Sequence record: MW876471
Source of the DNA: Escherichia phage P762
Direction: 5' to 3' (one strand)
Length of the DNA stretch: 38,954 bases
A program made the translations under genes and the position numbers. The notes beneath the pieces are model-generated. The model was given only the letters and a program-made list of their open reading frames with translations. It had not been told where the DNA came from and did not search any database. Positions 5,661 to 27,273 of this stretch are shown in pieces. Each line of letters opens with the position of its first letter. Position 1 is the first letter of the stretch.

Positions 5661-6226
5661 TAGTCCCTCCCGATGTCGGACATCATGTTGTAGCGACCCG
5701 TGTCCATCTCGTACTCCATAACCTGCTGATAGAGTTCTGCTTCCTGCTCACGAAGGTATAGCTCTGACTCTGGGCTACCGAAGAACTTAGCATTGAACTC
5801 ACGGCTAGCTTTAGTGACGATGTAGTCCCTGAAGACAACAGGCATCTCAGCGAATGGTTTCATCTCCACAAGCTCTACCGTGATAGGGTCGGTGAAAGTG
5901 GTTGACTGAGTGGATAGGTCGTACAGGTATCCACCCATGTTGCTGTAGTAGCTGGTGGCCCCCGCGGTCATTACACGAAGGTATGACGGCAGGAATCGAA
6001 TCCTATTGTCTTGGACATCAGGTGTCAGGACGGCAGCTTCGTTGATATTAAAGTTCCAGCCTTTAGCTTGGACCTGACGATTGACACGATGCAGTATACG
6101 TTGAGCGTTAGAGACGTCAGCGTTCCCCTCGTCAAGCTGTAGGACTGCTGGTTCACCGATAGCAGCTAACATATCGTTGATGGCATCTAAGTCATCGTTA
6201 GCATTCAGTGGAATGTATTGAGCCAT
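5660..6226 (-). CDS. gp11: tail tubular protein A (gp11)
   Basis: 188-aa ORF; AINDMLAAIGEP, IVTKASREFN and MEYEMDTGRYNM blocks match T7 gp11. Confidence 0.9.
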   Translation of the reverse strand: MAQYIPLNANDDLDAINDMLAAIGEPAVLQLDEGNADVSNAQRILHRVNRQVQAKGWNFNINEAAVLTPDVQDNRIRFLPSYLRVMTAGATSYYSNMGGYLYDLSTQSTTFTDPITVELVEMKPFAEMPVVFRDYIVTKASREFNAKFFGSPESELYLREQEAELYQQVMEYEMDTGRYNMMSDIGRD

Positions 6227-6246
6227 AAGTCTCCTCTCACTTTAAG

Positions 6247-6290
6247 CAAAAAAAACCCCTCAAGCACCCGAAGGCACCCAAGGGGTTTCA
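6247..6290 (-). terminator. T-phi-like rho-independent terminator after the capsid gene
   Basis: minus-strand AACCCCTTGGGTGCCTTCGGGTGCTTGAGGGGTTTTTTTT: GC hairpin with TTCG loop and U-run, same place and near-same sequence as T7 T-phi. Confidence 0.85.
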
Positions 6291-11386: not shown

Positions 11387-11409
11387 AGTCCCTATAGTGA
11401 TAGTTTAGT
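11387..11409 (-). promoter_or_regulatory. phage RNAP promoter (phi6.5 position)
   Basis: plus-strand gtccctatagtgatagtttag. Confidence 0.8.
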
Positions 11410-11535
11410 GTTTCACCTATGGATGACTGTTGGATTGATAGGATATGACTATCGGTTAGACTCAGTGTTTAGGGCGGTTGTTCGACCCGAACCACTTGTA
11501 CATGCAGTAAAGGGCCAGAAGTCCGGCCCAGTAAA

Positions 11536-12402
11536 TTACATGGATGGTGTCCACAGGATGACCTCCTTGGACTTAGGGTCGTAGTCGGAGGCTCGACAAA
11601 TACGAGCGACCTGAGCTTGGACCAGAAGTTCCTCCTCGGTCATCCCAGCTTTAGCAGCCAGAGTCACCATGCAGTCCCACAGCGTCATGTCTTCACGCTT
11701 CGGATACTTCTTCCACTCAGTCTTAATCTGGCCTTTGTTCTTGCCAGTCTTAAGCTCACGGCTCTCCTGCACGAAGTAGTACGGCTCGTCAAGGAACGCA
11801 CGAGTGGTGTCCTCACCCATCCCCGGAATACCACCGTAGCCATCTGTAGTGTCACCCTTGATGGTCTGCTCCATGTGCCAGTAGTCTGCCTCAGCAGTCG
11901 TATGACTCAGGATTTCACCAGTGGTTAACCAGAAGAACTCACAGTTCGGGATTGTCTTGAAGTCCTTATCACAGGACACAAGAACCGCATGGTCGCATCC
12001 GACAATCTGAGGTCGGGTCCCGATGATACCCATACAGTCATCACCCTCAAGCGTAGGACGCAGGAAGCTGTTGAACCGTGGGTCAGCCATCACTTCGGCT
12101 ACGAACTTCTTGTAACCTACGGGCTTGCGAGAACCTTTACGGTTGGCCTTATAAGTAGGAAGAACGTCCTTACGCCAGTTATTATCGTCAGTAAAGCACA
12201 TCACAATCTTAGCGTCTTTCCACGCCTTACGCTTCTTAATGATTTCAGCGATGGTGTTCTCAAGGATACGACGAGCCTTGGCATGGTCGCATATAAGGGT
12301 CCAGATGTCATCACCCCAGTCTGTCTCGTCCTCGGCAGCAGCCATAGACGAAAACACTAAGTAGTCACCATCCAGAACCAGAGCTATTTTCTTCTCTGAC
12401 AT
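11536..12402 (-). CDS. gp6: 5'-3' exonuclease gp6
   Basis: 288-aa ORF; CDHAKAR, NWRK, YKANRK, DKDFKTIPNC, TIKGD.TDGY, GKNKGQ, LWDC blocks match T7 gene 6 exonuclease. Confidence 0.92.
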   Translation of the reverse strand: MSEKKIALVLDGDYLVFSSMAAAEDETDWGDDIWTLICDHAKARRILENTIAEIIKKRKAWKDAKIVMCFTDDNNWRKDVLPTYKANRKGSRKPVGYKKFVAEVMADPRFNSFLRPTLEGDDCMGIIGTRPQIVGCDHAVLVSCDKDFKTIPNCEFFWLTTGEILSHTTAEADYWHMEQTIKGDTTDGYGGIPGMGEDTTRAFLDEPYYFVQESRELKTGKNKGQIKTEWKKYPKREDMTLWDCMVTLAAKAGMTEEELLVQAQVARICRASDYDPKSKEVILWTPSM

Positions 12403-12620
12403 TATGCCTCCTCAACGATGCAAACTGAAGCGAAGGCACGTACCGTTTCGACTTCCTCGGTCATTCCCTTCCAGCGGATATACGTCTCGTGTTTGATGGC
12501 TACCGTCTTTGGCATTACCCGGACTACTTTGCCTATACACATAGCGTATGACTTACCAGCTAGGCAGAAAGCAACCTTTTGCCCTACCTTAAGTTCTCGG
12601 CCTGATACGTCTTGACTCAT
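12402..12620 (-). CDS. hypothetical small protein in the gene 5.9 position
   Basis: 72-aa reading from internal ATG (MSQDVSGRELKVGQKV...) overlapping gp5.7 stop; does not resemble the acidic T7 gp5.9 as recalled. Confidence 0.55.
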   Translation of the reverse strand: MSQDVSGRELKVGQKVAFCLAGKSYAMCIGKVVRVMPKTVAIKHETYIRWKGMTEEVETVRAFASVCIVEEA

Positions 12621-12835
12621 AGACAGCCTCCGTGTTGGTTCAGGAACTTGGTGCCAGCAACGGTAATCTCCCACGCACCGTTGTTACGCCCGTCCATAGA
12701 CAGGCAGCTTAGATGTCCACGACTCGCAGCCTCAGCCACAAGTGCAGCGTTGTTGCGCACATAGTTGGACTGAAAGGTCTTCGGGCAGGACTTAAGGGCC
12801 GCTAGGACCCGTAAGTATTCACTCATCGTTCGCAC
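12617..12835 (-). CDS. gp5.7: gp5.7-like protein
   Basis: SCPKTFQSNYVRNNAALVAEAASRGHLSCL...GAWEIT block matches T7 gp5.7. Confidence 0.8.
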   Translation of the reverse strand: MRTMSEYLRVLAALKSCPKTFQSNYVRNNAALVAEAASRGHLSCLSMDGRNNGAWEITVAGTKFLNQHGGCL

Positions 12836-13113
12836 TCCACCCGGAAGTTGCCAAATCTCGGCTGGTTAGAGTAGGTGCTCAGGTCTTCTTTCAGACCGTC
12901 GACGATGGCTTTCTTGAGGACAAGTTCGACTACAGCTTCCAGACCTTCAGTCACGCCAACCTCTACCATCTTACGCTCAAAACCAGTGGTCTTCTCTCCG
13001 TTGAGGACCTTACGGCTCAGCTCGCAAAGGTCCTTCTTGCAGTAATCCACTTCTTCAGTGGACAGCACAACACCTAGCGAGAACGAAACTCGCATACGTT
13101 TGGTCATAGCCAT
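12823..13113 (-). CDS. gp5.5: gp5.5-like protein (H-NS-binding family)
   Basis: starts MAMTKRMRVSF as T7 gp5.5 (MAMTKKFKVSF); ATG overlaps DNA polymerase stop (TAATG). Confidence 0.8.
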   Translation of the reverse strand: MAMTKRMRVSFSLGVVLSTEEVDYCKKDLCELSRKVLNGEKTTGFERKMVEVGVTEGLEAVVELVLKKAIVDGLKEDLSTYSNQPRFGNFRVECER

Positions 13114-17454: not shown

Positions 17455-17477
17455 CATCCCTAAGGTGATAGTTTAGG
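17455..17477 (-). promoter_or_regulatory. variant phage-promoter-like sequence
   Basis: plus-strand atccctaaggtgatagtttag: consensus with two changes in the TATA element (ctaaggtg vs ctatagtg); flanked by a GGGAC...GTCCC inverted repeat. Confidence 0.4.
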
Positions 17478-26794: not shown

Positions 26795-26941
26795 TTACTT
26801 GTCCTCACTGTCGTGTATGCGCTTGCGGCCCTCGTAGACCGCTTTCAGATGACGCATAGTCGCATCGTGGTTTAACTGCCCGGTCTTGACCATAATCCTG
26901 GCGTTGGTGACGTGGTGCTGGCAGAGACCATAAGTTACCAT
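26795..26941 (-). CDS. putative 48-aa early protein (gene 0.4 position)
   Basis: ATG overlaps ocr stop (ATGA); size and position like T7 gp0.4 but no sequence similarity recognised. Confidence 0.45.
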   Translation of the reverse strand: MVTYGLCQHHVTNARIMVKTGQLNHDATMRHLKAVYEGRKRIHDSEDK

Positions 26942-27273
26942 CACTCGCAGTCCTCTTCAGGCTCGAACCATACCACATCACGGCTATCAGACACATCGTT
27001 ATACAGTGCCTCGTAAATGCGAGCTTGCAGTATGCGCGTTACGTCCTTGGTATCAGGCATCAGCCCAGAGTCTTCGAACTCAATGTCTATACCATCAGCA
27101 GCCATCACCGTGAAAATCTCGTGGTAATAGTGCGGAACCTGACCGTCTACGACCTCATGCAGCGCATCGTGATAATCATCGCCTTCAGTTATTTCGTCGT
27201 ACTGAATGCGATCGTTAAATGCTTCAACAGTTGCAGCCAGCAGCTCATAGTATGCGTTAGCGTTACGTTCCAT
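26941..27273 (-). CDS. ocr: Ocr-like DNA-mimic anti-restriction protein (gene 0.3)
   Basis: acidic 110-aa protein; [41 protein letters not shown] almost identical to T7 Ocr. Confidence 0.93.

Follow-up and report, generated by a model that had tools for sequence, protein, structure and literature searches.

In phage T7, gene 5.9 lies between genes 5.7 and 6, and its product, an acidic protein folded as a parallel coiled coil, mimics DNA and fills the DNA-binding site of RecBCD (PMC9836394). In the Escherichia phage P762 sequence considered here (record MW876471, a stretch of 38,954 nucleotides analysed over its whole length and called the window below), this position is held by another small gene, referred to as ORF X. 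The two genes are alike in several respects, as both lie in the slot between genes 5.7 and 6 and overlap with both of them, and both are small, dispensable and of class II. In contrast, T7 gp5.9 has a pI of 4.1 and a charge of -8.5, against a pI of 8.9 and a net charge of +2.6 for the ORF X protein (11 Val and 7 Lys in 72 aa), and the coiled coil of gp5.9 (PMC9836394) has to be set against a predicted all-beta barrel. Since ORF X is basic and all-beta, DNA mimicry in the manner of gp5.9 is excluded. A first-pass annotation of this DNA had already described, at 12402-12620 and in the position of T7 gene 5.9, a small, basic, Lys/Val-rich protein unrelated to gp5.9, and its coordinates and sequence proved exact, as did its account of the composition. 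The lack of relationship was borne out by two comparisons: BLASTP of the ORF X protein against T7 gp5.9 returned no alignment at E<=100, and the Pfam model Phage_T7_Gp5_9 (PF25708), which matches T7 gp5.9 itself at E 2.4e-6, gave no match to the ORF X protein at E<=1. Membership of the gp5.9 family is ruled out on these grounds, and ORF X is almost certainly a barrel of the DUF7205 family, unrelated to gp5.9. No copy of gp5.9 was found anywhere in the window (best tblastn E 0.33).

The window corresponds to the genome, reverse-oriented and circularly permuted, of a K1F-like phage of the T7 family (genus Kayfunavirus). Its closest database records are Kayfunavirus genomes (e.g. BUCT788, EcoDS1 and LS3), and its long ORFs are all on the minus strand. 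The gene order around ORF X is 5 / 5.5 / 5.7 / X / 6, with neighbours backed by Pfam and PHROG matches, and the features of the locus are the following:

11389-11411, minus strand: phi6.5-type phage promoter, downstream of gene 6, which opens the next transcription unit (exact 23-nt match to EcoDS1 phi6.5)
11536-12402, minus strand: gene 6, 5'-3' exonuclease of 288 aa (Pfam 5_3_exonuc_N; phrog_107, E 2.5e-80)
12402-12620, minus strand, stop codon included: ORF X, 72-aa DUF7205 / phrog_2251 protein, predicted five-stranded KOW/Tudor/SH3-like barrel
12617-12826, minus strand: gene 5.7 homologue of 69 aa (phrog_1334, E 2.9e-38; 75% identity with T7 gp5.7)
12627-12631, minus strand: Shine-Dalgarno sequence GGAGG, within the end of gene 5.7 (read from the sequence)
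12823-13113, minus strand: gene 5.5 homologue (H-NS-binding family), in the same operon and upstream of ORF X (Pfam Phage_T7_55; phrog_1452)
17457-17471, minus strand: closest promoter-like site upstream of ORF X (2 mismatches to the phage-promoter core)

ORF X starts with an ATG at 12620-12618, separated from its Shine-Dalgarno sequence by six bases. The TGA of gene 5.7 and the ATG of ORF X overlap as ATGA, and the TAA of ORF X and the ATG of gene 6 overlap as TAATG. A longer version, with a GTG start at 12674, was considered and dropped, the ATG at 12620 being preferred because of the Shine-Dalgarno sequence, the N-termini of homologues and the annotation of EcoDS1. A scan of the window with the core of the EcoDS1 phi6.5 promoter as query recovered 11 promoter-like sites, all of them on the minus strand, versus 0.8 expected. 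Neither a phage promoter nor a terminator-like site was detected by the window scan between ORF X and its neighbours, and as there is no promoter site from 17457-17471 to ORF X, the latter would be co-transcribed with genes 4 to 6. ORF X is thus part of the class II polycistron (DNA-metabolism period) that extends from gene 4 to gene 6. The gene 6 product at the end of this unit shares 52% identity with T7 gp6 and 98% with K1F gp6.

A short reading frame in such a position may simply be spurious, or may be decaying and functionless. In favour of this view are the small size of ORF X, a product recorded as hypothetical or unknown in every record carrying annotation, the lack of ORF X in K1F, and the presence of its remnants in LS2. 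However, orthologues with 81-97% identity are present in about 27 sequenced phages of enterobacteria, as well as in many metagenomic contigs, and homologues at 40-49% identity are found in unrelated phages. Pairwise comparison of ten orthologues from Kayfunavirus gives a median dN/dS of 0.16 (dS of about 0.48), the values for genes 5.7, 6 and 5.5 being 0.05, 0.06 and 0.39, respectively: ORF X is under purifying selection. This selection, the Shine-Dalgarno sequence and translational coupling, the confident prediction of a fold (see below), the same conserved residues retained in homologues across about 92 clusters, and a divergence, within a conserved slot, in step with that of the flanking genes all count against a spurious frame, which is extremely improbable. 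ORF X is a genuine gene, translationally coupled to both of its neighbours.

The ORF X protein matches phrog_2251 at E 2.9e-21 (residues 2-71, over 74 profile positions), and a precomputed label, PF23835.2, which corresponds to DUF7205, is attached to all of its homologues at 81-96% identity, while the older version of the Pfam model (PF23835.1) does not match the ORF X protein. An exhaustive profile search among 1.8 billion representatives delineated a family of 92 clusters at 50% identity, nearly all of which are stand-alone proteins of 60-90 aa. Large multi-repeat proteins that were also hit by the profile (P0028, P0063) contain eukaryotic Tudor or bacterial Ig repeats and were treated as non-homologous; real fusions of DUF7205 exist with a C-terminal zinc ribbon (P0019, L010) or with an unknown N-terminal barrel (P0022, P0037), and are not informative as a clue to function. 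In GenBank phages, the family is found in a subset of Kayfunavirus, in about 170 Pseudomonas records, mostly PaP1-like Pakpunavirus and KPP10-like Nankokuvirus myoviruses, in the Klebsiella Drulisvirus phiKpS2 (gp28), in the Pseudomonas syringae phage 3MF5 (gp14) and in Ralstonia phages; it also occurs in Warsawvirus and in metagenomic T7-like lineages. The genera Pakpunavirus and Nankokuvirus include the P. aeruginosa phages PAK_P3 and PAK_P4, which have been studied for therapy.

Within this family, EcoDS1 AS9_0028 (YP_002003763.1) lies in the same slot and is 92% identical to ORF X, other members being PaP1 gp034, KPP10 ORF69, phiKpS2 gp28 and 3MF5 gp14. The PaP1/EM group shares 41-49% identity with ORF X, and has its length, conserved residues and predicted fold in common with it; no feature sets ORF X apart from the rest of DUF7205. 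Every annotated member is a "hypothetical protein". DUF7205, PF23835 and phrog_2251 were mentioned nowhere in the literature found by our search, which also returned no paper on gene 5.9 in relation to Kayfunavirus, and neither a Citrobacter phage paper nor the PAK_P3/PAK_P4 transcriptome paper mentions a gene of the ORF X type. Searches with the ORF X protein gave 0 matches at E<=10 in the PDB (phmmer), just a sub-threshold CusF_Ec match in Pfam, and nothing useful in NCBIfam. DUF7205 is a family catalogued but uncharacterised, of which ORF X is an ordinary member.

AlphaFold2, with an input alignment of ten sequences, produced for the ORF X protein a five-stranded all-beta model (mean pLDDT 87, pTM 0.71), to which the independent BFVD model of a 40%-identical homologue from the Pseudomonas phage Henu5 corresponds with a TM of 0.92. 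ORF X is thus confidently predicted to be a single-domain, five-stranded KOW/Tudor/SH3-like barrel of about 70 residues. The small KOW/SH3-like beta barrel that had been suggested in the first-pass annotation was right in this respect, although the KOW profile fails: the predicted model has the five-stranded SH3-like barrel fold of KOW domains, but the Pfam KOW model (PF00467) did not match the ORF X protein at E<=1 and gave a weak match in one distant relative only, and the DUF7205 profile reached the KOW domains of Spt5 and uL24 at marginal E values (0.14-0.6). Unlike the KOW domains of NusG/Spt5 and uL24, ORF X stands alone, without an NGN domain or a ribosomal context. Its identity with the barrels of the Tudor "royal family" (Sgf29, PHF19, SMN and TDRD3) and with the Tudor-like C-terminal domain of ProQ is 8-17%, and the aromatic cage of Tudor-type methyl-lysine or methyl-arginine readers, with its 3-4 conserved aromatic residues, is not evident in it, as conserved aromatics occur at two positions only (F/Y18 and W/Y50) in the alignment of 63 family members, judged from sequence alone. 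The top matches of the model in the PDB (Foldseek) are ribosomal chains, at a TM of about 0.75 and E 4e-3, which we take to be the rRNA-binding protein eL21, and its structural neighbours in BFVD are "uncharacterized" without exception. The barrel fold by itself does not reveal the ligand of ORF X.

Several of these resemblances could nevertheless suggest an RNA-directed regulator, that is, a stand-alone barrel of the KOW or ProQ C-terminal type that would bind RNA or a NusG-KOW partner (Rho, S10), and would modulate transcription-translation coupling, termination or mRNA stability in the middle period of infection. The nearest folds (KOW and Tudor barrels, ribosomal chains) and the marginal uL24 KOW matches are consistent with such a role, as are the weak matches of Phage_ProQ_C_like (PF24203) in 18 of the 63 DUF7205 members (best E 1.6e-4). 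The strand pattern of ORF X (G13-x-x-V-A-F ... G30-x-V ... K-T-V-x-I) presumably parallels the layout of the NusG KOW domain, and the 5.5 and 5.7 products of T7 act on host transcription factors. However, besides the failure of the KOW model, all the Phage_ProQ_C_like matches are sub-threshold, below the gathering score of 27 bits, with none for the ORF X protein, and the recurring neighbours of the family are DNA enzymes rather than RNA or transcription factors. A regulator acting on RNA is accordingly an unlikely identity for ORF X.

The residues conserved in the family, and its charge, were established from the same 63-member alignment. D4 is present in 63/63 sequences and V16 is also invariant, G7, G13 and K38 are each retained in at least 95% of members (61/63 for K38), R61 in 56 of them (89%), and position 8 is Arg or Lys in 44 (70%); position 50 is Trp or Tyr in all 47 members that have this position. 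The resulting family signature, D-x-x-G-[RK] ... G-[DQ]-x-V-A-[FY] ... G-x-V ... P-K-T-V ... [WY] ... R, is complete in ORF X (D4, G7, R8, G13, V16, A17, F18, G30, V32, P37, K38, T39, V40, W50 and R61). The basic character is likewise shared, with a median pI of 8.9 and a pI >7.5 in 49 of the 63 members. Lys, Arg and aromatic residues arranged in this way on a small, basic barrel would be expected of a surface that binds nucleic acids.

The genomic contexts of the family differ between lineages. Of 223 Kayfunavirus-like records, about 27 have ORF X in the 5.7/6 slot. Nothing lies in this slot in K1F, in which genes 5.7 and 6 overlap directly although its gp6 is 98% identical to that of the window, and it is also empty in SH3 and AN17P1 (span of about 360 bp). 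In Pipis, IME177, YZ1, SR04 and several Salmonella phages, it contains an unrelated acidic ORF of 149 aa (phrog_4382, of unknown function; span of 801 bp), in LS2 and EV136_1 decayed remnants, and in T7/T3-like phages gp5.9. The 5.7/6 slot thus behaves as an accessory-gene hotspot, and the lack of ORF X in K1F, despite the near-identical gp6, together with its presence in so few of the records, indicates that ORF X is dispensable. In the metagenomic T7-like lineages L029, L031 and L024, whose distance from this phage is comparable to that of T7, the order is again 5.5 / 5.7 / X / 6, with identities to the window of 53-56% for the DNA polymerase, 52-60% for gp6 and 43-50% for X. As X occupies the same slot and diverges in step with its flanks, it has long been established at this position in Studiervirinae, and is not a recent replacement of gp5.9. 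The idea of an unusual replacement of gp5.9, implied by the framing of the first-pass annotation, was misleading in this sense, given several deeply diverged T7-like lineages with the same arrangement and a slot that is empty in K1F.

Outside this slot, the last part of the DNA ligase gene overlaps with X in a T7-like prophage from Pseudomonas sp. NUPR-001, and in L026 X lies directly upstream of DNA ligase. In PaP1 and PAK_P4, it is followed by one ORF, dCMP deaminase and ligase; in phiKpS2, exonuclease is followed by a small ORF, X and endonuclease VII, and in 3MF5, ligase is followed by two ORFs, X and dNMP kinase. In one phage, the family is present twice, among arrayed small early genes and away from any gene of DNA metabolism. 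No partner gene conserved across the lineages carrying X was found.

From these data, the reading that we favour, tentatively, is that ORF X encodes a nucleic-acid-binding protein, dispensable to the phage, which serves as an accessory factor in the replication/repair/recombination module. The ORF X product would bind DNA or RNA/DNA intermediates, for example nicks, flaps or ends, through a conserved basic and aromatic surface formed by R/K8, K38, W/Y50 and R61, the invariant D4 being probably structural, and would act beside enzymes encoded nearby, namely the gp6 5'-3' exonuclease in T7-like phages and, in other phages, an ATP-dependent DNA ligase. Nucleic-acid binding, its substrate and the cooperation with exonuclease or ligase are what we infer, and this reading is preferred because of the basic charge found family-wide, the conservation of Lys, Arg and aromatic positions, the nearest fold relatives, and a gene repeatedly found next to those of enzymes acting on nicks and ends (5'-3' exonuclease, DNA ligase). 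Several points nevertheless count against an accessory factor. Its dispensability is one of them, and the absence of a conserved partner gene and the phage with two copies away from any DNA-metabolism gene are others; the KOW, ProQ_C-like and ribosomal matches are all below family thresholds, and proteins are as frequent as nucleic acids among the ligands of such small beta barrels. In addition, genomic context cannot discriminate here: the class II region of T7 also carries the host-takeover and anti-defence genes 1.2, 2, 4.5, 5.5, 5.7 and 5.9.

A counter-defence or host-takeover inhibitor is a possible alternative, to which we give less credit. The barrel would in this case bind and neutralise a conserved host protein, such as RecBCD, a housekeeping factor, or a nuclease or sensor involved in defence, and ORF X would be one interchangeable cargo of the accessory slot that holds gp5.9 in T7. 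This would fit the variable content of the slot among close relatives, and the fact that the window has no gp5.9 homologue, yet keeps Ocr (26941-27273) and gp2, an inhibitor of RNA polymerase; a patchy distribution, dispensability and occurrence in many unrelated lytic phages are also typical of accessory anti-host genes. In contrast, ORF X has no similarity to any anti-defence protein of PADLOC, Pfam or the PDB (0 families at E<=10 for the search of PADLOC-DB with the ORF X protein), and its dN/dS of 0.16 gives no signal of an arms race. Moreover, 40-49% identity is retained between E. coli podoviruses and Pseudomonas myoviruses, so that any target would need to be very conserved across such different hosts, and the basic character of the family excludes the DNA-mimic route of gp5.9, Gam and Ocr (PMC9836394). 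An inhibitor of RecBCD specifically is very doubtful. The different anti-nuclease mechanism that had been envisaged at the outset found no support either, as searches of PADLOC, Pfam, NCBIfam, PHROGs, the PDB and BFVD yield uncharacterised relatives only, and no link to a nuclease. Two readings are thus left, accessory factor and counter-defence inhibitor, which are not separable computationally, the accessory factor being the favoured one.

A further proposal is more novel: DUF7205 may represent a new class of small basic barrels guarding phage DNA ends, nicks or flaps, the barrel either binding DNA itself or blocking a conserved host nuclease or sensor. We consider it improbable, but if it were true, the many T7-like and PaP1-like phages devoid of gp5.9 would have its job carried out without DNA mimicry, and retron guards that sense RecBCD inhibitors would stay untriggered.

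Taken together, these data show that in T7-like phages the accessory slot at the "gene 5.9 position" is polymorphic, its content being of at least four alternative kinds, and hence a useful spot in which to seek host-interaction genes. One of its residents, ORF X, is small, well folded according to prediction, dispensable and endowed with clear conserved residues, which makes it an easy experimental target. The family to which it belongs is widespread, from Kayfunavirus and metagenomic T7-like phages to Drulisvirus, Warsawvirus and about 170 Pakpunavirus/Nankokuvirus records, and the function of DUF7205, once assigned, would provide an annotation in hundreds of phage genomes in one step.

The stretch analysed is the whole P762 genome, reversed and permuted, and its terminal repeat region is therefore internal. 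The Kayfunavirus promoter core CTATCACTATAGGGA has 11 matches in the window (between 3021 and 34590), against 0.8 expected by chance, all 11 of them on the minus strand. Two further features of the window are:

Window 12823-13113, minus strand: gene 5.5, homologue of the H-NS-binding family
Window 26941-27273, minus strand: ocr, 110-aa ORF matching the Pfam ocr family of DNA mimics (E 1.6e-32)

Among Kayfunavirus genomes, divergence is far quicker in gene 5.5 than in the genes beside it, with a median dN of 0.67 and a dN/dS of 0.39 (dS being near saturation); the adjoining gene 5.7 hardly varies (dN 0.006). The Ocr ORF has a pI of 4.05, and P762 has kept the gene 0.3 anti-restriction protein, yet is without gp5.9, the RecBCD inhibitor of T7.

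Outside P762, the DUF7205 barrel (the family of the basic protein at 12402-12620) occurs in extended and duplicated forms:

L010:4001-4336 (IMG/VR UViG_3300045988_000029): C-terminally extended barrel variant
L024:336-746 (metagenomic T7-like locus): P0019, C-terminally extended barrel variant
L036:5469-5723 and 6001-6264 (44-kb metagenomic phage contig): two DUF7205 paralogues

In both T7-like variants, a Cys-rich segment (WCQAC...HEC in one, CPIC...CPRC in the other) is added C-terminal to the barrel, resembling in its motifs a zinc ribbon or knuckle; Pfam gave no match. The L036 paralogues, separated by one gene, are embedded in a long run of small early-type genes that lack annotation, and genes of DNA metabolism are absent from their vicinity. 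A 6-Mb bacterial record, the Pseudomonas sp. NUPR-001 chromosome (CP197353.1), contains a T7-like gene set that looks complete, running from SSB to tail tube, and that includes, between primase-helicase and DNA polymerase, the following:

L034:3048-3608: protein carrying the anti-Gabija domain Gad2 (PF26128)

The position between genes 5.7 and 6 is itself variable:

L007:1481-1930 (Escherichia phage Pipis): 149-aa ORF, phrog_4382
L008:1478-1661 (Escherichia virus LS2): non-coding mosaic remnant

In many Kayfunavirus genomes, this strongly acidic 149-aa ORF, unrelated to DUF7205 and with no Pfam match, replaces the DUF7205 gene, and the slot length of Pipis is also found in IME177, YZ1, SR04, PRF-SP2 and STP-SP8. 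The LS2 slot holds about 80 nt with 94% identity to the Pipis-type ORF, after which come 12 codons (FIRWKGAAEEVE) that are the same as in DUF7205 variants; this suggests that an ancestor carried the two genes in tandem before a deletion. Being acidic, the phrog_4382 product is a stronger candidate for a DNA mimic or anti-nuclease than the DUF7205 protein of P762.
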